Below are positions 31,568 through 39,947 of a stretch of 64,000 nt of DNA, piece after piece. The notes beneath the pieces were generated by a model. That model made no database searches, had not been told where the DNA came from, and saw only the letters and a list, made by a program, of their open reading frames with translations. The stretch's first letter is position 1. The number at the start of each line of letters is the position of its first letter. Position numbers and translations under genes: made by a program. This DNA is from Candidatus Bathyarchaeia archaeon (GTDB lineage: Archaea > Thermoproteota > Bathyarchaeia > Bathyarchaeales > Bathycorpusculaceae): contig JAVZLM010000008.1 in the NCBI GenBank assembly GCA_038883775.1, positions 32,001 to 96,000 on the forward strand, given 5' to 3'.

Positions 31568-32467
31568 ATGTCCTCTGCTGAAATCGCCGTTCAAGTGTTC
31601 CGCACACTAGAAAATGAAGACATTAGAATACTGCAAGTCATAGAAGCAGCAAAAAGCAAACATGAATTTGTTCCAAAAGAAATTATAGCAAAATATGCAA
31701 AATTCAGCCCAGAAGAAACAGAATTTCGCCTAAACCGCCTAAACAAATTAAAACTCGTATACAGAATGAAGGGCGCCTATGTGGGCTACACGCTAAATTA
31801 TGCGGGCTACGATTGTTTAGCAATAAACGCCCTCGTAAAAGCTGGAATAATCGAAGCCTTCGGAAAACCTTTAGGCGTAGGCAAAGAAGCGGACGTTTAC
31901 GACGCCCTAAACCCAAAAGGCGAAAGAATAGCCGTAAAATTCCATAGACTGGGCAGAATAAGCTTTCGCCAAACAATAAGAAAAAGAGGCTACATAACTG
32001 AGCATGCCAACTGGCTTTATCAATCAAGACTTGCCGCAGAAAAGGAATTTGAAGCCTTAAAACTTGTCTTTCCATGCGGTGTTGCTGTTCCGAAACCCAT
32101 AAGCCAAAACCGCCACGTCCTAGTCATGGGAATGATTGAAGGCGCAGAACTGGCCGAATACAAGGAAATTCCAAAACCAGAAAAAATTCTCAAAGAAATA
32201 TTGCGTAATGTTAGAAAAGCCTATTTCAAAGCTGGTGTAATCCACGCAGACCTAAGCGAATACAATGTTCTCTTAAAGCCTAACATGCACATCCTAATCA
32301 TAGACTGGCCCCAATACGTTAGAAAAGAGCATCCTAATGCCCAACAACTTCTAACAAGGGATGTCAAGAACATTCTGGAATATTTTAAGCGCAAGCACAT
32401 GGTGAAAATAAAACTGAAAGAAGCCTTAGAATATGTGGCTGGTAAAAGCAGAATAATAAGCGCTTAA
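31568..32467 (+). CDS. rio2: RIO2-type Ser/Thr protein kinase
   Basis: N-terminal wHTH; GVGKEADVY, VKFHRLG, IHADLSEYN, IDWPQ. Confidence 0.92.
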   Translation: MSSAEIAVQVFRTLENEDIRILQVIEAAKSKHEFVPKEIIAKYAKFSPEETEFRLNRLNKLKLVYRMKGAYVGYTLNYAGYDCLAINALVKAGIIEAFGKPLGVGKEADVYDALNPKGERIAVKFHRLGRISFRQTIRKRGYITEHANWLYQSRLAAEKEFEALKLVFPCGVAVPKPISQNRHVLVMGMIEGAELAEYKEIPKPEKILKEILRNVRKAYFKAGVIHADLSEYNVLLKPNMHILIIDWPQYVRKEHPNAQQLLTRDVKNILEYFKRKHMVKIKLKEALEYVAGKSRIISA

Positions 32468-32697
32468 TGCACATCAAGTACAATGTAGAGAATGTTGTTT
32501 CCCCGCAACAAAACATTCCCATAATTCGTGATTAACTGGTCTTCTCTGCACTCCGTCGCTCCTTCCAAAAGAATATTCATGTGACCATCACATTTAATCA
32601 TCTTCCCCTTGTACTCGCATCCGTTTTTTAGCACTACGGCAATATTGGCATTTAACTGTTTAACAAGCACATTCAAAGGCTTCTTACTTGGCTCCAT
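32464..32697 (-). CDS. Sm/LSm-family RNA-binding protein
   Basis: Sm1 VVLKNG.EYKG...DGHMNILL; Sm2 LLRGNNILYI. Confidence 0.92.
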   Translation of the reverse strand: MEPSKKPLNVLVKQLNANIAVVLKNGCEYKGKMIKCDGHMNILLEGATECREDQLITNYGNVLLRGNNILYIVLDVH

Positions 32698-32749: not shown

Positions 32750-32762
32750 ATAAAAGTTTTAT
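32750..32762. repeat. Left target-site duplication ATAAAAGTTTTAT
   Basis: Identical 13-mer at 38236-38248; both copies abut the terminal repeats. Confidence 0.8.
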
Positions 32763-32783
32763 CCCCAAACCCAAACCCAAACT
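32763..32783 (+). repeat. Left terminal inverted repeat C(CCCAAA)3CT
   Basis: CCCCAAACCCAAACCCAAACT read directly. Confidence 0.9.
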
Positions 32784-32845
32784 TTAAAAATTGAGACCGA
32801 AGAACCGTGCAGAAGTAGACCAAAAGCACTCAGAGAAAGCGCATA

Positions 32846-33190
32846 ATGTTTATATTACCCTCCCCGAGACATCGATTTATGGGCAACTTTAACGTTTTAT
32901 ATCTTAATCAGATTATTTGTATTGCAATTGCGTTGAATGAACATGGAATTTTGTTGAACCTTGATGATATGCAAATGGGTAGATTAAGTCCGAAACTTTT
33001 GGGGGACATAAACATCGTTCCAATATCTCGGATATATCCTATTCAATTAACTTTGGAAGTGAAAGAAAAAATGAAATCCATTGGTATTGTTGATTTTTGG
33101 GATTATTTATTTTACCAAGAAACAAAAATTAGACAAGAGAAGAAAGACAAAATTGGACGAAGGTCCAGGAAAAGACTTTGGATATTTTAA
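32846..33190 (+). CDS. Hypothetical protein (element)
   Basis: 114-aa ORF just inside the left TIR; no motif recognised. Confidence 0.4.
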   Translation: MFILPSPRHRFMGNFNVLYLNQIICIAIALNEHGILLNLDDMQMGRLSPKLLGDINIVPISRIYPIQLTLEVKEKMKSIGIVDFWDYLFYQETKIRQEKKDKIGRRSRKRLWIF

Positions 33191-33301
33191 ACGTAAACGT
33201 AAACATTGAAACCTTTTAGCATGAACGTTTTATTATGGATATTTTCCATAGAAAAGCATGGAAAAGGTATGGAAAAGAAACGTTCCTTTTTAATGTTTAG
33301 G

Positions 33302-33805
33302 TTAAAGTTCAGAACATTTTAAAATAGGTTCAGTTTTAAGTTTAGGTTTTTGTTCAAGTCTTCTAATAATGCCCTTGACGATTTTTCTGTAAGCCAAAAA
33401 CTCAGCAATTTGGTTCTCTTGAGAGCCATATCTAAACACAATGCGTGGCTCAGGCTTATCCTTCTTCGCAGAAACTCTGAGAGTGCTTCCTTCTTTAATT
33501 GCTTGCATAGTAAACCATTTCTGAAGATTTTTGTTCTGGGAGAGTAGGCTAACCCAAGCCATGATTTTAACGTTCTTTTCCCATGAAACCTTTTTGTCAA
33601 AAACGACATGATAACTGTTTTTTGAGCTTTTGAGAATAATGAACCCTTTTAATTTGAACCATCGCATTGTTCTCATCGCCCAATATTTGACGGTTCTAAA
33701 CTTGGTTTTATCAAAGTCAAGTTTAACCGTATTTTTGTCGGTTATTCCCATGATGAAAGGCAAATTGTTGTTTTCAGCTTTCGATTTCTTTTTCAATCCA
33801 TTCAC
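33302..33805 (-). CDS. Small archaeo-eukaryotic primase (AEP)-like protein
   Basis: Motif I hhhDhD (VKLDFD), motif II (KSSKNSYHVVF), downstream TLRV. No clear motif III Asp. Confidence 0.6.
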   Translation of the reverse strand: MNGLKKKSKAENNNLPFIMGITDKNTVKLDFDKTKFRTVKYWAMRTMRWFKLKGFIILKSSKNSYHVVFDKKVSWEKNVKIMAWVSLLSQNKNLQKWFTMQAIKEGSTLRVSAKKDKPEPRIVFRYGSQENQIAEFLAYRKIVKGIIRRLEQKPKLKTEPILKCSEL

Positions 33806-34085
33806 CTTCTAAGCCATATTTTTCTGGATTTTCTAAGAAGCTTTTAGCCGAAACATGAACAAACCCTTTTGGCATGAATTGATGCGCCTTAATCACGGCT
33901 TTGTAAAGCTCTTTTCCTTTACCATGAAACTCATATCTTCCACTTTGCTCAATTGTTTTGGTTCTCTTAGTCTTTTTCCAATACCTTTGACGTATTCCGT
34001 CTTTGCGTGTTTTCCAATATCTTTGACGCACATAAACCTTAGCTTCATAAGAACCGTAAACAGCTATCTTTTTCGTTTCAGCCAT
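33774..34085 (-). CDS. Basic hypothetical protein with duplicated RQRYWK
   Basis: VRQRYWKTRKDGIRQRYWKK; AGGTGA RBS before MAETKK. Confidence 0.65.
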   Translation of the reverse strand: MAETKKIAVYGSYEAKVYVRQRYWKTRKDGIRQRYWKKTKRTKTIEQSGRYEFHGKGKELYKAVIKAHQFMPKGFVHVSAKSFLENPEKYGLEGEWIEKEIES

Positions 34086-34109
34086 TAACATCACCTTTAT
34101 CTCTTAATC

Positions 34110-34592
34110 TTAAGGTAAAATCGCATTTTTTCTCGAAGATTTAGCCTTCTTTTTGTGCCATAAACCGTATTTATGTCTAATTTTCAAAATTGCTATAAAC
34201 AATTTGTCTAAAACTTCAATTGAAAGCTCTTGTGCTATCCATTTTTCCGTTTGCGGATTACTTACTGTAACAAATTTCGTAGCTGGGCATTTTTTATCGT
34301 GGAAAACCGTAATAAGCCATTTTTCAACCCAGAATTCAAACTCTCTCTCCAAATTTGGGTTTTTATCAAGACGCTTAAACGTAGCATCCTTAATCGTTCC
34401 AATCTTAACAGGCAAACCACTCTTAGTTTTCCCTTTAATATGCAAATCCTTAAACTCAATTGGAAAAGGTTGCGGAATCCAAGGCTCTGGAATCTTACTC
34501 TTAAGAGTAAAATACGTTAATATCCATTGTTTCTGCTCATCTTCACTCATACTTTTCCAATCCTTAGGAAAAACAACATCTTCAAAAGCCAC
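34110..34592 (-). CDS. Hypothetical protein (element)
   Basis: GTG start (MAFEDVVF) after AGGTG; operonic with neighbours. Confidence 0.6.
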   Translation of the reverse strand: MAFEDVVFPKDWKSMSEDEQKQWILTYFTLKSKIPEPWIPQPFPIEFKDLHIKGKTKSGLPVKIGTIKDATFKRLDKNPNLEREFEFWVEKWLITVFHDKKCPATKFVTVSNPQTEKWIAQELSIEVLDKLFIAILKIRHKYGLWHKKKAKSSRKNAILP

Positions 34593-34980
34593 ACTTACCC
34601 ACCTTTCCCATTCTCTCAAGAAGCCAAGCTTCAACACCACTAAGGAAATCAGAAAAAGAGAGATATTGAACCCATTGATAGCGAACTTTCAGTTTTTGCT
34701 TTAGCTTTTTTGTTGGAATATCACCTTCAAGCCACTCATTAACCCAAAACTGCCTTTCAGCATTAGGCATAGGCTCTAAAACCAAATAACGACGCTTTCG
34801 ATAGTCAAGCTCAATGGCTAAAACATGGTTGTCTCTCATATATCGCTTAAGCAAAGGCTTAATCTGTTCAACTGCATACCTTAACGTTTCTCGCTTATGT
34901 TTTGAAGTAGGCTTTACCTTATCAAAAGCTTCTTTTGTCAAACGTAAAGCTTTTAACTGACCTTCAACATTTATACTCAT
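34582..34980 (-). CDS. Hypothetical protein (element)
   Basis: ATG start MSINV; operonic. Confidence 0.6.
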   Translation of the reverse strand: MSINVEGQLKALRLTKEAFDKVKPTSKHKRETLRYAVEQIKPLLKRYMRDNHVLAIELDYRKRRYLVLEPMPNAERQFWVNEWLEGDIPTKKLKQKLKVRYQWVQYLSFSDFLSGVEAWLLERMGKVGKCGF

Positions 34981-35030
34981 ATCTAACCACATCCTTTTTC
35001 TTTTGTAAACTTTGAAAGTCAGTGAAGACG

Positions 35031-35549
35031 TTAGTCTTCTTCTGTTTCTTCGCTTTCTTCAGTTGAAAACCAAGCGTATTGTTCTTCTGAAGGTTCTAAA
35101 GGCTCAAATTTCTCTGCAAACTCTTCAAGCGAAGGCTTAATGAAATAGCCTTCATACCCTATTTGCAGTTTTTCTTTGACTTTTCTCCATTGTTCAGGCG
35201 TTAAGTCCTTAAGCTTCCATCCCTTTTCGCTAAACTTAGCAATGAAACCGTCTTCGCCATCTATCTCAAAACCACCATAGTAAGTTGTGCATTCATTGAG
35301 TAATGCATCAAGTTCTTTATCTGGAATAACAGCCTCTGGATTAGGTTCAGCGGGTTTTTCTATCTCTTCAAAGTATTTTCTGAGAGCCTCACGCACTATT
35401 GAGCCTCTGCTTACGTCTCTTTCGTAGGCTAAATCCTTCAGTTTTTTGAGCCATTTTTCTGGAAGCATTATTTGAACACGCACTAAAGACTCATCGCTAT
35501 CCAAGTCGGGAACTTTTTTCATTTCCAAATCTTCAATTTTTTCGGACAT
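35031..35549 (-). CDS. Ribbon-helix-helix (CopG-like) regulator with acidic C-terminal domain
   Basis: VRVQIMLPEKWLKKLKDLA...VSRGSIVREALRKY; GAGG RBS. Confidence 0.8.
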   Translation of the reverse strand: MSEKIEDLEMKKVPDLDSDESLVRVQIMLPEKWLKKLKDLAYERDVSRGSIVREALRKYFEEIEKPAEPNPEAVIPDKELDALLNECTTYYGGFEIDGEDGFIAKFSEKGWKLKDLTPEQWRKVKEKLQIGYEGYFIKPSLEEFAEKFEPLEPSEEQYAWFSTEESEETEED

Positions 35550-35601
35550 ACTTATCTACCTCATAAATTACCTAATTACCGAAAGATTAATAAACCCTAC
35601 C

Positions 35602-35615
35602 GTAACTATAGTTAC
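35602..35615. promoter_or_regulatory. Perfect palindrome between divergent regulators (putative operator)
   Basis: GTAACTATAGTTAC, with outer CCCTA...TAGGG arms. Confidence 0.55.
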
Positions 35616-35629
35616 CTTAGGGATACGTA

Positions 35630-36166
35630 ATGAAAGAAAGAATGGGAGAAAAATCGGTTCAAATAGGCAAAAGAAACAAAGCCAAAATTATAGCTGAACT
35701 AATCAAAAATCCAATGACATTCACGGAATTGAAAGAAACCTTAGACTTCTCAGCAAAAACTCTGATGTTTCATTTAAGAGATTTGGAAAATGAAGGTTTA
35801 ATACGACGAATTTTAGAAGGAAAATCCATTCTTTATGATGTCATAAAACCGAAAAGCGTCATTGAGCTTAGAAAACAATTCCTTTCAGAACTTCTAAACT
35901 TAAAAGCCTACGATGTAGCTTTAAACGAAAAGACAAAAGCATTATACTATCAATTTTTGAAAACTCTCAAAGAAAGCATTGAAAAGCCAGAACCAGAAGC
36001 AAAAACCACAAAAATCATAGCTAAAACCATTGAAATTCCAAAAGGATTCAAAGGAACAATAAAACAAAAGATAACCAATATGTATGAAAAACCAGAGCTA
36101 AAAGAAACCGAAACCGAACAGTTGAAACCTTATTCCATGAAAAGAAAAAAGAAGGTGAGAACATGA
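35630..36166 (+). CDS. Winged HTH (ArsR-like) regulator
   Basis: PMTFTELKETLDFSAKTLMFHLRDLENEGLIRR; ATGA overlap with cas1. Confidence 0.82.
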   Translation: MKERMGEKSVQIGKRNKAKIIAELIKNPMTFTELKETLDFSAKTLMFHLRDLENEGLIRRILEGKSILYDVIKPKSVIELRKQFLSELLNLKAYDVALNEKTKALYYQFLKTLKESIEKPEPEAKTTKIIAKTIEIPKGFKGTIKQKITNMYEKPELKETETEQLKPYSMKRKKKVRT

Positions 36167-37248
36167 GAGCAAAGCTTCAGAGAATCGTTATAGATAATTG
36201 TGGCTCGTATTTAGGAATGCAGAAAGGCTGTTTTGTTGTTAAGGATAGAGAAGGTAATGTTCAAAGGTTTCCAATGTTTGAGAATGAAATCGGCGAAATT
36301 GTCTTGACAGGTGGGAACTTTGTTAGCACAAGTGTTTTAGCGTCTTGTGGTTTCTGGGATATTCCAATAACTATTATGACAAAGAACTTTAAGCCTATTG
36401 CTGTTCTTAAAAGCTTAGATGATGATAGCCATGTTAAGACACGCATTGCTCAATATGAAGCGTTAAAGAATGGAAAAGGCATAACCATAGCCAAAACCAT
36501 TGTAGAGTCAAAAATTGAAAGCCAAAACATAATCCTCAAAAGATATTCACTCAAACAACTTGACATTATGACTTTGAAAGCCAAAATTGAAAAGTTAGAA
36601 TCCAATAACCTTAAAGACTTGAGAAAAAGGCTCTTACCGATAGAAGGCAAAGCTTCAGAACACTATTTCCATGAAATCTTTAAGCTGTTTCCAAAAGCCA
36701 TTAGAACAGAACAAAGAAAAACTTGGAAGGCTTATGATAGTTTAAACAACACTTTCAACTTAGCCTATACGCTTTTGAAGTTTAGAGTTCACTCTGCAAT
36801 TTTGAAGGCTCACTTAGAACCTTACTTAGGGTTCATGCATTCAGAACAACATGGTAAGCCTTCTTTGGTTTGCGATTTTTGTGAGCTTTACCGCTACATA
36901 ATAGACTCATTCCTAATTGACTTCTCGCAAAATCTAAAACCCAAAGATTTCATTGTTAAAACTGAATGGTATTCCACGAATCGTTTAGGCAAAAGGCAAG
37001 TTTTGAACCGTGAAAAGACTAAGGAATTAACTGAAAATCTTAATCGGTTCTTTGAGACAAAAGTGCCAATAAGCAGAATAAGATACGGTTTTAAACAGCA
37101 AATTGAAACATTGATTAATGAAGAGGCTTTGCTTTTTGCGAAGTATCTTCGAGACGAAAGGGAACAATGGATTCCACGCATCATTCAACTAAACCCTTTT
37201 TTCCATCCACGTTTTATGCGTATGAGAAAAAACTTTTTATCTTTTTAA
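36163..37248 (+). CDS. cas1: Solo Cas1 endonuclease/integrase (putative casposase)
   Basis: N-terminal GSYLG beta domain; RIAQY; catalytic E (IEGKAS), NxxxNxxY, H (YLGFMH), D/E (LVCDFCELYR). Confidence 0.93.
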   Translation: MRAKLQRIVIDNCGSYLGMQKGCFVVKDREGNVQRFPMFENEIGEIVLTGGNFVSTSVLASCGFWDIPITIMTKNFKPIAVLKSLDDDSHVKTRIAQYEALKNGKGITIAKTIVESKIESQNIILKRYSLKQLDIMTLKAKIEKLESNNLKDLRKRLLPIEGKASEHYFHEIFKLFPKAIRTEQRKTWKAYDSLNNTFNLAYTLLKFRVHSAILKAHLEPYLGFMHSEQHGKPSLVCDFCELYRYIIDSFLIDFSQNLKPKDFIVKTEWYSTNRLGKRQVLNREKTKELTENLNRFFETKVPISRIRYGFKQQIETLINEEALLFAKYLRDEREQWIPRIIQLNPFFHPRFMRMRKNFLSF

Positions 37249-37276
37249 TCGAAAGGATACTGTGAAGAGATGAGTA

Positions 37277-38185
37277 TTGGTGGTAAATAAACTGGCAATC
37301 GCAGGAAGCATTGTTGCTTTTATTAGTTTGCTTTTCCCGTGGTGGTCTCTCGAAGCTAGTATTGTTGGAGTGTCCCCAGTAACTTTCCACGTATATCCTG
37401 GATGGTTCAGTGGTAATCTAAATGATGTGGTTAATGTTTTTCGTAAACTTGACATAACTCTCGGCGTAAATTTTTTCGAAGAGTGCGTAGGTGCATTAGC
37501 AACGTTTGGTATACTATTTTGTTCAGGGATTCTCTTTGCATTGATTGGAGCTTTTATCAGAAGTAACATGGGAAGGGGAATTATTGCACTCGGGTTTTTC
37601 TTAATCTTATGTGGTATTTATGGTTTTTGTTACACATGGAACAAACTATTTTACCTATTACAAACTCCTATTTCATTTTCACATTCTGAATTGTCACCAT
37701 TATTTTCTGTTACGTGGGGTTGGTCATATGGTCTCTATATCGCCATCTTTGCTTTCCTTTTATTGTTGGTGAGTGTTGCATTTCATCCAGTAGAAGTTAA
37801 AGCAAAAGAAGAAGTAGAAATTGAAAAAAAGCCTTCAGAGCAAAAACATATATTCAATAGGACCAAAAAAAGGACCTATTTAGAGTCGATAATGGAAGCA
37901 CGAGCAAGGGAGATGGGTCCACCTCCTCCTCCACCTCCTCCTCTCCTATGTAGATTAAGGCTTCATCGGTGGAGGTATTATGGTCAAGATGTTGTGGTTA
38001 CTGTTCGAGAATACGTAAAGGTTGGAGACGCACGTATACCAGTTAATGAAGGAGTGAAGCTCATTAATAATAAAAGAAAATGTGCACGATGTGGTATAAA
38101 ACAAGAGGCAAACATTTTTACTAACGAAGATGGAACACTCTCTATGAGAGGATGGAGAGAGTCGAATAATTCGCAAGGTGATTAG
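37277..38185 (+). CDS. Membrane protein (4 TM) with poly-Pro linker and a C-terminal C-x4-H...CxxC module (cargo)
   Basis: LLFPWW...WGWSYGLY TM domain; PPPPPPPPLLCRLRLHRW...KCARCG. Confidence 0.7.
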   Translation: MVVNKLAIAGSIVAFISLLFPWWSLEASIVGVSPVTFHVYPGWFSGNLNDVVNVFRKLDITLGVNFFEECVGALATFGILFCSGILFALIGAFIRSNMGRGIIALGFFLILCGIYGFCYTWNKLFYLLQTPISFSHSELSPLFSVTWGWSYGLYIAIFAFLLLLVSVAFHPVEVKAKEEVEIEKKPSEQKHIFNRTKKRTYLESIMEARAREMGPPPPPPPPLLCRLRLHRWRYYGQDVVVTVREYVKVGDARIPVNEGVKLINNKRKCARCGIKQEANIFTNEDGTLSMRGWRESNNSQGD

Positions 38186-38208
38186 TCAGTCTTGCACACC
38201 CCCTCGTT

Positions 38209-38235
38209 AGTTTGGGTTTGGGTTTGGGTTTGGGA
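38209..38235 (-). repeat. Right terminal inverted repeat AG(TTTGGG)4A
   Basis: Reverse complement of the left end with one extra hexamer. Confidence 0.9.
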
Positions 38236-38248
38236 ATAAAAGTTTTAT
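38236..38248. repeat. Right target-site duplication ATAAAAGTTTTAT
   Basis: Identical to 32750-32762. Confidence 0.8.
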
Positions 38249-38423: not shown

Positions 38424-39947
38424 ATGCATGAAGTGCACGTTGACGGAGAAACCTTAACCATCGAAGACGTTGTAAAAGTTGCAAGAGAAAACGCAAAAGT
38501 CGTAATATTAGAAAAAGTAAAAGAGAAAGTGAAGAGAAGCCGAGAAGTTTTGGAAAAACTCGTCAAAGAAGGACAAATAATTTACGGCGTAAACACCGGC
38601 TTCGGCGCTTTAAGCAACAAAATCATCACGCCCGAAGAAAACAGAAAACTGCAAACAAACCTCATCAGAAGCCACTCCACATGCGTTGGAAAAAACTTAA
38701 GCACAGAAATTGTCCGCGCCTTAATGCTTTTACGAGCGAATACGCTTGCTAAAGGATATTCTGGCATACGCTTAGAAACACTTGAAACCATAGTAGAAAT
38801 GCTAAACAAGCGGGTACACCCAATAATCCCAGCAAAAGGCTCTGTTGGAGCAAGCGGCGACCTAGCCCCACTATCACACATGAGCTTGGTGCTTATAGGT
38901 GAAGGAAAAGCCGAATACAAAGGCAAAACGATGAATGGAAAAGAGGCAATGGAAAAAGCCAACATAAAACCCATCCAACTAGAATTTAAAGAGGGCATAG
39001 CCCTAAACAACGGCACCCAACTAATGACAGCCATAGCTGCACTAACGGTTTATGACGCTGAAAACCTAATTAAAACAGCGGAAACTGCAGCAGCTTTAAG
39101 TCTCGAAGCATTGAATGGCGTTTCCGACGCCTTCCACGAAAAAATCCACAAAGTAAGACCACACAATGGACAAGCAATAACGGCAAAAAACATAAGAGAA
39201 ATGATTATCGGAAGCCAACTCGTCCAAACTGGAAAAGAAGCCTTTGAAAGGTTGAAGCATCCCCACGACCCCTACAGCCTAAGATGCATACCACAAATTT
39301 TGGGCGCCGCAAGAGATGCCACCGCCTACGCAAGAAGGGTTGTGGAAATTGAAATCAACTCCGCCACAGACAATCCACTAATTTTTCCAGAAGAAGAACT
39401 CTGCCTTTCAGGAGGAAACTTCCACGGGCAACCCATATCGCTTGCCATGGACATTCTCGGAATAGCCCTAACCATAATCGGCAACCTCTCAGAAAGAAGA
39501 ACAGCAAGACTCCTCGACGAAAAACTCAACAATGGCTTACCAGCCTTCTTAATCCCACCAGAGGCAAAAACAGGATTAAACAGTGGCTTAATGACCCTAC
39601 AATATACAGCAGCCGCCCTAGCCTCAGAAAACAAGGTTTTAGCGCATCCAGCATGCGTAGACTCAATTCCAACATCAGCAAACTTCGAAGACTTCGTAAG
39701 CATGGGAACAACAGCAGCCCAAAAAGCCATGCAAATCCTAGAAAACACAGAGTATATAATAGCCATAGAACTTCTCTGCGCAGTCCAAGCAATAGACCTC
39801 CGAGGACCAGAAAAACTCGGAAAAGAAACCAAAAAAGCCTATTCAGCCATCAGAAAGATGGTGCCTATGCTTAAAGAAGATAGGGTATTAAGCGAAGACA
39901 TAGAAAAAATTAAACGTGCTATGTATAATCTTTTAAGGCTTGAATAA
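38424..39947 (+). CDS. hutH: Histidine ammonia-lyase
   Basis: YGVNTGFG, LIRSH, MIO triad GASGDL, DPYSLRC, GGNFHG. Confidence 0.93.
   Translation: MHEVHVDGETLTIEDVVKVARENAKVVILEKVKEKVKRSREVLEKLVKEGQIIYGVNTGFGALSNKIITPEENRKLQTNLIRSHSTCVGKNLSTEIVRALMLLRANTLAKGYSGIRLETLETIVEMLNKRVHPIIPAKGSVGASGDLAPLSHMSLVLIGEGKAEYKGKTMNGKEAMEKANIKPIQLEFKEGIALNNGTQLMTAIAALTVYDAENLIKTAETAAALSLEALNGVSDAFHEKIHKVRPHNGQAITAKNIREMIIGSQLVQTGKEAFERLKHPHDPYSLRCIPQILGAARDATAYARRVVEIEINSATDNPLIFPEEELCLSGGNFHGQPISLAMDILGIALTIIGNLSERRTARLLDEKLNNGLPAFLIPPEAKTGLNSGLMTLQYTAAALASENKVLAHPACVDSIPTSANFEDFVSMGTTAAQKAMQILENTEYIIAIELLCAVQAIDLRGPEKLGKETKKAYSAIRKMVPMLKEDRVLSEDIEKIKRAMYNLLRLE

Follow-up and report, generated by a model that had tools for sequence, protein, structure and literature searches.

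The window analysed here is a stretch of 64,000 nucleotides from contig JAVZLM010000008.1 (assembly GCA_038883775.1) of a Candidatus Bathyarchaeia archaeon. In it, an Sm-like gene (minus strand, 32464-32697; LSM, E 3.5e-18) is separated from an open reading frame (ORF) resembling histidine ammonia-lyase (hutH, 38424-39947) by a block of about 5.5 kb with nine ORFs, the longest of which encodes a Cas1 protein of 361 residues and the next longest a protein of 302. The block ends in inverted (CCCAAA)n and (TTTGGG)n repeats, and an exact direct repeat of the 13-mer ATAAAAGTTTTAT stands outside them. An earlier reading of the bare sequence, referred to below as the original prediction, had described this arrangement, and all the sequence features that it listed are present. 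We report that the block is an insertion, and that it probably represents (with a likelihood we put near 0.8) an integrated copy of a casposon-like DNA transposon, mobilised by Cas1 and lacking a family B DNA polymerase (PolB).

The insertion is established by empty sites. Thirty relatives were found with the hutH protein, and each flank of the window was searched separately by BLAST against their loci. In three loci from the same genus (L084, L085 and L086) the left flank stops and the right flank starts on the identical 13 bases, with no element between them. The sequence there reads ...ccaccaaat-ATAAAAGTTTTAT-gaaaaactattcc..., with one copy of the 13-mer, which in L085 bears one substitution. 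Two loci from two other genera of the same family (L087 and L088) likewise show an empty Sm-hutH spacer with a single 13-mer. An empty allele of this kind had been envisaged in the original prediction, and the five relatives prove that the element inserted into the Sm-hutH spacer and duplicated an AT-rich, nearly palindromic host site of 13 bp. Because the empty sites hold one copy of the 13-mer, the 13-mers on either side are duplicated host target, and the element proper spans 32763-38235 (5,473 bp); the bounds first given, 32750-38248, include both repeats. Contigs from one sequencing run (X1; all runs were consulted as contigs) link about 32697/32706 directly to 38442/38443.

A repeat search of the window finds a perfect 20-nt inverted pair (100% complementary) at 32764-32783 and 38209-38228. 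The 19-mer repeat pattern occurs three times in the window, at the two ends only, with 0.00 expected from 100 shuffles. A regular-expression search of the 1.69-Mb assembly for two or more (CCCAAA)/(TTTGGG) units returns both ends and one 12-nt chance match. As a separate observation, three contigs from another hot-spring run (X2) match the window through the left flank and the 13-mer into the left end as far as 32782 and then run on into unrelated sequence, which suggests a different element in the same Sm-hutH site of another sample. Coordinates of the element's features are collected in Table 1.

Table 1. Features of the Cas1-encoding element and its target-site duplication, in window coordinates
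Feature	Position	Strand	Remarks
Left target-site duplication copy, ATAAAAGTTTTAT	32750..32762		Exact match to 38236-38248; single at empty sites L084-L088
Left terminal inverted repeat C(CCCAAA)3C, CCCCAAACCCAAACCCAAAC	32763..32782	+	20 nt, 100% complementary to right end
114-aa ORF, function unassigned, may not be a gene	32846..33190	+	No Pfam or NCBIfam match; tblastn 0/78 family loci
167-aa protein resembling archaeo-eukaryotic primases (AEP-like), DxD D30/D32, sxH S60..H66	33302..33805	-	PF24387 E 3.6e-5, below cut-off; the family's second conserved gene
106-aa basic protein	33774..34094	-	Overlaps start of AEP-like gene; tblastn 12/78 loci
176-aa variable ORF	34110..34640	-	Seen in 1/78 loci; no Pfam or NCBIfam match
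136-aa variable ORF	34582..34992	-	Seen in 2 other loci of 78; no Pfam or NCBIfam match
172-aa ribbon-helix-helix (CopG-type) protein, acidic C-terminal part	35031..35549	-	PF01402 RHH_1 E 1.6e-5, above cut-off
Imperfect palindrome in divergent promoter gap between ribbon-helix-helix and winged-helix genes	35586..35631		24-nt arms, 75%
178-aa winged-helix (ArsR-type) protein	35630..36166	+	PF01022 E 1.9e-7
Cas1-family integrase (casposase-like), putative, 361 aa	36163..37248	+	PF01867 E 4.2e-51; TIGR00287 172.5 bits
302-aa ORF, probable cargo	37277..38185	+	No Pfam or NCBIfam match; in no other locus of 78 (tblastn)
Right terminal inverted repeat G(TTTGGG)4A, 3' end G-rich	38210..38235	+	Complementary to left end
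Right target-site duplication copy	38236..38248		Exact direct repeat of left copy

The Cas1 protein retains the residues expected of an active enzyme. E161, H226, D238 and E241 are invariant in an alignment of 27 Cas1 sequences of the family and align to the catalytic E/H/D/E of Archaeoglobus fulgidus Cas1, in line with what had been claimed for the window's copy. By fold, CRISPR Cas1 (4n06, 3.6e-16) and casposase (6opm, 4.0e-16) tie as matches. The usual length in the family is 343-346 residues, as against 361 in the window, whose last 16 or so residues diverge. Within the transposon reading as a whole, and at the same rough level of confidence, this Cas1 would be the integrase that moves the element.

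A Cas1 tree of 95 rows was built with IQ-TREE (the 'quick' setting, model LG+C20+F+G4, unrooted). It comprises 35 members of the family, 50 CRISPR-adjacent Cas1 sequences, five Nitrososphaeria sequences linked to PolB or aEF-2, and five without a visible array. The five Nitrososphaeria sequences lie beside a PolB of the protein-primed type or beside aEF-2, and are taken as casposons from that context. All 35 family sequences form a single clade, with support of 100 in the Shimodaira-Hasegawa-like approximate likelihood ratio test (SH-aLRT) and a stem length of 1.46; the 50 CRISPR-adjacent rows all lie outside. The five PolB-linked Nitrososphaeria sequences are sister to this clade (SH-aLRT 81), at a place where long branches meet. 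The tree marks the family as a distinct clade of Cas1, away from the CRISPR-adjacent forms, and its loci have neither arrays nor cas2 nearby.

Linkage to CRISPR was assessed across the family. A k-mer scan for spaced repeats finds arrays in 50 of 60 reference Cas1 loci from Thermoproteota; the same scan of 78 family loci returns one match, which lies inside an ORF of 1,533 codons, so that real arrays number 0/78. Clustering of all ORFs within 7 kb of Cas1 in the 78 loci yields no Cas2-like cluster. The Cas1 family is not linked to CRISPR arrays. For the window itself, the description of the Cas1 as 'solo', with no cas2 or array, is borne out; it does not extend to the genome. No CRISPR-like repeat array is found in the assembly and no Cas2 in the window, and the sole genomic match to Cas2 is on another contig, C17. 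That contig carries a host type I CRISPR-Cas locus (C17:1-7945, locus L241), in which the C-terminal 68 residues of a CRISPR-type Cas1, cut by the contig start, are followed by cas2, a UPF0175/DUF3368 pair, cas4, a Csa2-like cas7, cas3 and cas6. The C17 fragment is 92.6% identical to the CRISPR-adjacent Cas1 of a relative (L114) and about 25% identical to the Cas1 of the element; L114 Cas1 and the element's are 26% identical.

No PolB is detected either. The ORF list and Pfam agree with the original prediction that no ORF other than Cas1 exceeds 302 codons and that the block has no PolB match. Among the 20 elements delimited below, a tblastn search with the PolB of locus L037 finds no match, and their longest ORF has at most 604 codons. 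An ORF matching PF00136 stands beside Cas1 in just one of the 78 loci, L037 (L037:10001-12959). This PolB ORF of 634 codons (E 2.5e-30) starts 29 nt after Cas1, and no ends of the family type were found at the locus. The protein is 35% identical to a PolB on contig C1 of the window's genome, and may be a cellular neighbour or belong to a true PolB casposon relative.

A search with the window's Cas1 yields 3,935 candidates, of which 1,789 are homologues at E<=1e-3; identity among the 120 best is 56-100%, and most of these are unnamed. With the alignment of 27 of the homologues, 158 of 279 pattern matches in contigs sampled at one genome per species encode a Cas1 relative, and metagenomes (JGI) contribute at least 551 relatives among 598 matches. 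Of the 78 family loci retained, 74 are Bathyarchaeia by title. The titles of the remaining four read Aenigmatarchaeota, uncultured archaeon, Levybacteria and Acidobacteriota; these are short or possibly mis-binned contigs. Several metagenome-assembled genomes have two or three copies. The window's own genome has one full copy and three remnants of the Cas1 3' region, on contigs C28, C1 and C3, two of which retain the G-rich end and the TAAAAnTTTTA motif. At C28:4300-5075 the 3' part of Cas1 (89% amino acid identity) runs off the contig at one side and is followed at the other by (TTTTGGG)3 and TTAAAAATTTTAT. At C3:176700-177700, about 42 residues of Cas1 precede a degenerate G-rich end and TAAAAGTTTTAAT. 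The fragment at C1:2200-3300 has no recognisable end. A candidate for a degenerate C-rich left end lies about 150 bp upstream of the C3 remnant, which is possibly a deletion derivative. By sequence comparison, the element is a member of a large, multi-copy family found across Bathyarchaeia, whose sole universal gene encodes a Cas1 that is catalytically intact as judged by its residues.

Twenty elements, the window's copy included, could be delimited by regular expressions and by generic scans for inverted and direct repeats; they range from 2.8 to 12.6 kb. All twenty have inverted ends made of simple repeats and 13-bp direct repeats of one AT-rich type. The commonest end repeats are (CCCAAA)n, (CCCAA)n and (CCAA)n, and examples of the flanking 13-mers are ATTAAATTTTAAT, ACTAAATTTTGAT, ATTTAATTTTTAT, ATTAAAAGTTTAT and GTAAAGTTTTATC. 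Where a 13-mer is asymmetric its two copies are direct rather than inverted, and the 13-mer is therefore a duplication and not a part of the inverted repeat. The regular-expression scan of 79 loci returned 15 bounded elements, 21 loci with one end, four with both ends and unmatched flanks, and 38 with none; one locus, having no usable Cas1 match, went unscanned. L006 was missed by the filter, and five further elements were recovered by the generic scan. Some ends deviate from the common repeats (CT in L041 and L066, CTT in L048, poly-A in L076) while the 13-bp AT-rich target type is unchanged, and end sequence and target preference seem to evolve separately. One metagenome contig (L216:1-6160) consists entirely of one element with no flanking DNA. 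The outermost 60 bases at its two ends are perfect inverted copies of one another, beginning in a CAAACCC repeat, and it is the only one of 80 metagenome loci to end in this way; it may be a free linear form or, equally, an assembly break at the repeat.

The 13-mer may have a role of its own in the host. At the empty sites L084-L088 it is conserved together with the following GAAAA across three genera, and the rest of the spacer diverges. This conserved stretch probably has a regulatory function in the host and may belong to a divergent promoter. The Sm start is 53 nt downstream of the 13-mer, and TATA-like hexamers in the genome peak 41-50 nt upstream of crude gene starts. This crude test did not confirm the 13-mer as a promoter element, and the idea is left as speculation. 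Two results count against it: a loose 13-mer motif is enriched about 2.4-fold in intergenic DNA (56 of 131 matches, as against 18% non-coding sequence), and the genes flanking the 20 elements point toward the element as often as away.

The original prediction also noted a small AEP-like ORF, and it is there: the 167-residue protein matches one family, PF24387 (Pfam AEP-like). Its 348 homologues (129-186 residues) are all unnamed or called hypothetical, and a profile search finds 513 representative clusters at E<=0.001. By BLAST clustering, Cas1 has the AEP-like ORF no more than 7 kb away in 43 of the 78 loci, or in 49 when two related clusters are counted, cluster 6 (hhalign 87%, E 4e-6) and cluster 15 (63.5%). 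The original prediction had suggested testing whether terminal repeats, duplications and this ORF co-occur in homologues; by hidden Markov model the ORF is found in 13 of the 20 delimited elements, and in 19 counting the linked clusters. Among 31 aligned sequences D30 and D32 (in VKLDFD), S60, R110, K114 and K117 are invariant, and H66 is kept in at least 90%. In the AlphaFold2 model (mean confidence, pLDDT, 89.3), D30 and D32 lie on the strand 26-31, and S60 and H66 in the hairpin 54-72.

PF24387 is matched by 17 of the 31 members at E<=0.01, with a best E of 2.2e-05. A VIA-align comparison of the fold against 48,161 chains places HP0184 (Z 7.2) and the polymerase domain of LigD (PolDom, Z 7.0) at the top, in a Z range that the tool itself rates as middling. 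AsfvPrimPol, the RepB' primase, Prim-PolC, human PrimPol, the Prim-Pol domain of the CRISPR-associated primase-polymerase (CAPP; 7nqd, Z 5.4), PriS and the AEP domain of poxvirus E5 follow at Z 5.2-6.1, and about half of the top 31 matches are AEP primase-polymerases. A Foldseek search of the model against the PDB returned nothing at E<=1e-3. On these grounds we take the protein, with moderate confidence, to have a minimal AEP fold, and it could plausibly act as a primase.

Apart from the 114-codon ORF, the genes of the element fall into two divergent groups. The ORFs of 167, 106, 176, 136 and 172 codons make up a leftward operon on the minus strand. To the right, the stop codon of the winged-helix gene overlaps the start of Cas1 (ATGA). 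The palindrome in the gap between the groups is a possible operator. In all 12 loci where tblastn of the 78 loci finds the 106-residue protein, its ORF adjoins the AEP-like ORF; Pfam, NCBIfam and a protein atlas search give no family or fold lead for it. An imperfect inverted repeat with 30-nt arms (77%), including AAACGTAAACGTAAAC, occupies the gap between the 114-codon ORF and the AEP-like gene (33182-33317), and may act as a terminator or as a site for replication or regulation. By eye, a run of prolines, a C-terminal pair of cysteines and several hydrophobic helices can be made out in the 302-residue protein. In the copies on C28 and C3 the right end lies at most about 45 bp past the Cas1 stop; because these ends come straight after Cas1, the 302-codon ORF appears to be cargo private to the window's copy. 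Elsewhere in the family, an ORF of about 112 codons with an HExxH-like motif and no Pfam family stands downstream of Cas1 in nine loci of a more distant branch, among them L022, L035, L039, L047, L050, L053, L067 and L074. Representatives of the other conserved neighbour clusters (299, 112, 136 and 118 residues) have no Pfam family.

Related loci also contain units that lack Cas1. We found 17 junctions in which a G-rich end, a core of 11-13 bp and a C-rich end follow one another, in 11 of the 78 family loci; the background is one spurious match in 1.17 Mb of reference loci and one in the window's own genome. These junctions mark head-to-tail strings of units with a single core at each junction, for example at L025:8830-15729, L035:3625-14094, L075:17-5660 and L013:12085-14603. 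Many of the units lack Cas1; these are 0.4-4 kb long and carry one to a few ordinary, unrelated genes each, such as those for an AsnC-type regulator, a HAD hydrolase, an HNH protein, a SAM methyltransferase, a nitroreductase, a glyoxalase-like protein and a 4Fe-4S protein. At the other extreme, L039:7160-17308 is an element of about 10 kb in which Cas1 is accompanied by a divergent AEP-like ORF and by a small protein with an HExxH motif. Its cargo, a fusion of C5 DNA methylase and HhH-GPD glycosylase, a GHKL ATPase and a receiver-domain protein, looks like a set of defence genes.

A mechanism can be proposed by analogy with characterised casposases, for which a 3'-OH of the ends is reported to attack a specific target with a 14-bp stagger, with a helix-turn-helix (HTH) domain required (PMC6977970). 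Oligomers of Cas1 would bind both ends of the element, and the terminal 3'-OH groups of the (TTTGGG)n strands would attack the two strands of a target, of consensus roughly ATTAAAnTTTTAAT, 13 bp apart. Repair of the gaps by the host would then leave the 13-bp duplication. Since each insertion would regenerate two preferred targets, later insertions could stack head-to-tail. The AEP-like protein and its partner of 106 residues would most likely prime or initiate copying of the element or fill in its ends, and this is the least secure step; bulk DNA synthesis would fall to a host polymerase. The ribbon-helix-helix and winged-helix proteins would regulate the divergent operons, and the 302-codon ORF would travel as cargo.

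Extended to the cargo-only strings, the same logic would make the family a Cas1-run gene-cassette system found throughout Bathyarchaeia, in which elements with Cas1 and the AEP-like gene mobilise units without Cas1, and duplication of the palindromic target builds arrays of repeats and inserts. We offer this as a tentative idea that is somewhat more likely to be wrong than right. A bolder addition is that telomere-like G-rich 3' ends, together with the AEP-like protein, might allow a free linear replicative form. If the idea is true, the system would offer a present-day counterpart to the intermediate postulated between casposons and CRISPR arrays, and an integron-like platform for gene exchange based on Cas1.

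Several observations weigh against a casposon-like transposon, and some of them suggest other explanations. The PolB that defines casposons is absent, so the element is not 'self-synthesizing'. Only 20 of the 79 loci could be delimited; many are short contigs, yet several have flanks of 10 kb. The grouping with casposases is weak (SH-aLRT 81) and joins long branches, and the tree references are Thermoproteota alone, without casposases of families 2-4. By sequence the closest solved structure is the CRISPR Cas1 of A. fulgidus (4n06, 2.3e-20), ahead of the Methanosarcina mazei casposase (6.3e-15). This last result would suit a Cas1 gene that has strayed or degenerated from CRISPR adaptation and serves the host type I system, with incidental flanking repeats, as would the presence on C17 of a type I locus with a cas1 truncated at the contig end. 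We consider this account the least probable of all: the C17 fragment is a different Cas1, the empty sites mean that the whole 5.5-kb block was inserted, real arrays are missing from the family loci where most reference loci have them, and the family is a separate clade. Scarcely more credible is a small integrated plasmid or provirus, similar to pRN plasmids with their CopG, HTH and prim-pol genes, sitting in a 13-bp att core through a tyrosine or serine recombinase encoded elsewhere, with Cas1 as a passenger. The flanking repeat does recur in unrelated sites, as att cores do; the ribbon-helix-helix and winged-helix proteins weakly match the pRN1 families ORF56 (plasmid copy-control; NCBIfam, 0.0081) and ORF80 (0.0073), respectively; and the L216 contig starts and stops exactly in inverted ends, as a free replicon might. 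Yet neither the nine ORFs of the window's copy (Pfam, NCBIfam) nor the neighbour-cluster representatives scanned, most of which have no family match at all, include a recombinase. Cas1 is the one universal gene and its catalytic residues are invariant. Inverted repeats abut the core in 20 of 20 delimited elements, and att integration neither needs nor makes such repeats; the cargo-only units retain the ends without replication genes; and none of 61 pattern matches in IMG/VR viral contigs encodes a relative.

A closer competitor concerns the AEP-like protein within the same Cas1 transposon. Instead of a primase it could be a DNA-binding accessory that shares the fold common to AEP, Rep and origin-binding domains. 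Its role would be to recognise either the target or the simple-repeat ends and to assist Cas1 in the manner of Cas2, IHF or the casposase HTH domain, and movement would be by cut-and-paste or by copying entirely with host enzymes. Much of what speaks for it is at the same time difficult for a primase. Z scores for AEP folds do not exceed 7.2 anywhere, and the origin-binding domains of SV40 T-antigen and papillomavirus E1 and the AAV Rep protein are in the same list at Z 4.9-6.3. The window's copy reaches 24 bits against PF24387, under the cut-off of 27. The motif-II histidine is replaced by arginine in the paralogous cluster 6 and by leucine or serine in L029 and L016, and the alignment has no invariant acidic residue downstream of H66 that could serve as a third motif. 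Members of the family have just 140-185 residues or so, and the best 150 of the 513 profile matches are all small proteins that stand alone, with no fusion to a helicase or larger primase among them. The basic residues R110, K114 and K117 are conserved, some elements have two tandem AEP-like paralogues, and the bounded 2.8-kb element L011 has no AEP-like ORF. Against an accessory role, the invariant D30 and D32, with S60 and H66 conserved in the main branch, are the metal and nucleotide signature of AEPs, AEP primase-polymerases make up about half of the best fold matches, and the Pfam AEP-like family is the sole family matched and recurs in more than half of the members. We hold the accessory role to be rather unlikely, if distinctly less so than the two accounts above. 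The casposon-like transposon remains our preferred explanation. The distinct, compact, PolB-less class of Cas1 transposons put forward in the original prediction is supported by the empty alleles, by the ends, duplications and AEP-like ORF shared across the family, and by the separate clade; its further claim, which takes a primase to be the replication or end-processing module, is weakly supported, given a Pfam match below cut-off, fold scores of Z 5-7.2, the missing third acidic motif, and a histidine replaced in the paralogous branch and in some copies.

The CRISPR adaptation machinery is proposed to descend from casposons, whose known families are few, rare and defined by PolB. The pairing of Cas1 with an AEP is, to our knowledge, otherwise known only inside CRISPR loci, as CAPP. 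The hundreds of loci found here would mean that Cas1-based transposition needs no PolB encoded by the element. What appears to be new is a Cas1 paired with an AEP-like protein outside CRISPR, a palindromic target duplicated at each insertion, and arrays of inserts spaced by that repeat. In the casposon and AEP-Cas1 literature that we found, which excluded subscription-only papers and supplements, we saw no description of a transposon with Cas1 and an AEP-like gene, a 13-bp palindromic target and cargo arrays, nor of verified empty sites, microsatellite-type ends, or the size and host range of the family. A compact system of two or three proteins makes several old questions testable: how Cas1 measures a fixed stagger (13 bp), how a palindromic repeat turns into a self-renewing target, whether gaps are filled by an enzyme of the primase type, and how arrays could grow before immunity.

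The family shares much with casposon families 1-4 as set out in the main accounts of them (Krupovic et al. 2014, PMC4046053; 2016, PMC4779613). Common to both are a Cas1 homologue with intact catalytic residues as presumed integrase, terminal inverted repeats, a sequence-specific choice of target, accompanying HTH genes and the lack of a CRISPR array. Both also make a short target-site duplication, given as 14-15 bp for Aciduliprofundum boonei and 14 bp with an AT-rich part for M. mazei (PMC6977970). Tandem casposons with one common duplication are reported from Methanosarcina (PMC4779613), a likeness to the strings seen here; strings of cargo-only units were not met in the casposon papers to the extent that their text was available. 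Casposons encode PolB, whereas the window's element and all 20 delimited elements lack it. The elements described here are 2.8-12.6 kb long (5.5 kb in the window) with a duplication of 13 bp, and they target a short AT-rich palindrome found at many intergenic sites, in contrast to the 3' end of a tRNA or aEF-2 gene described for casposons. They differ further in their microsatellite-like ends (CCCAAA, CCAA, CT, CTT, poly-A), the conserved small AEP-like gene, the abundance of Cas1-less cargo units and the distinct Cas1 clade.

A PolB-less class was not wholly unanticipated. On the basis of six Cas1-solo sequences of hot-spring metagenomes, Salgado et al. (2022, PMC9755687) put forward a group of 'family 5 casposases', and the sequencing run that best matches the window is also labelled a hot springs metagenome. 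As described there, these are archaeal Cas1 proteins without cas neighbours, close to Cas1 of subtype I-A, with conserved catalytic residues and no C-terminal HTH domain; most lack PolB, some contigs have inverted repeats, and the neighbours are poorly conserved hypothetical proteins. These features agree with those of the present family. Matched by description rather than by sequence, family 5 is probably the same clade. The available text of PMC9755687 makes no mention of an AEP-like gene, the length of a duplication, a target motif, empty sites, arrays or a Bathyarchaeia host.

CAPP (Zabrady et al. 2021, PMC8211822) shares with the present pairing a genetic link between an AEP-fold protein and a Cas1 integrase. 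According to that paper CAPP occurs in CRISPR-Cas loci, next to or fused with cas1 or cas2, and is a larger protein of proven activity, whereas the elements described here have no array and no cas2, and their AEP-like protein, 167 residues long in the window, stands alone without detectable sequence similarity to CAPP. The strings of cargo units resemble the cassette arrays of integrons, with head-to-tail units of one to a few genes, unrelated cargo and one short recombination site between units. Integrons differ in using a tyrosine recombinase, attC hairpins and a fixed platform with a promoter, features for which the strings have no counterpart. The enzyme here would be Cas1, and each unit is bounded by inverted ends and a duplicated site, which is the logic of transposition.

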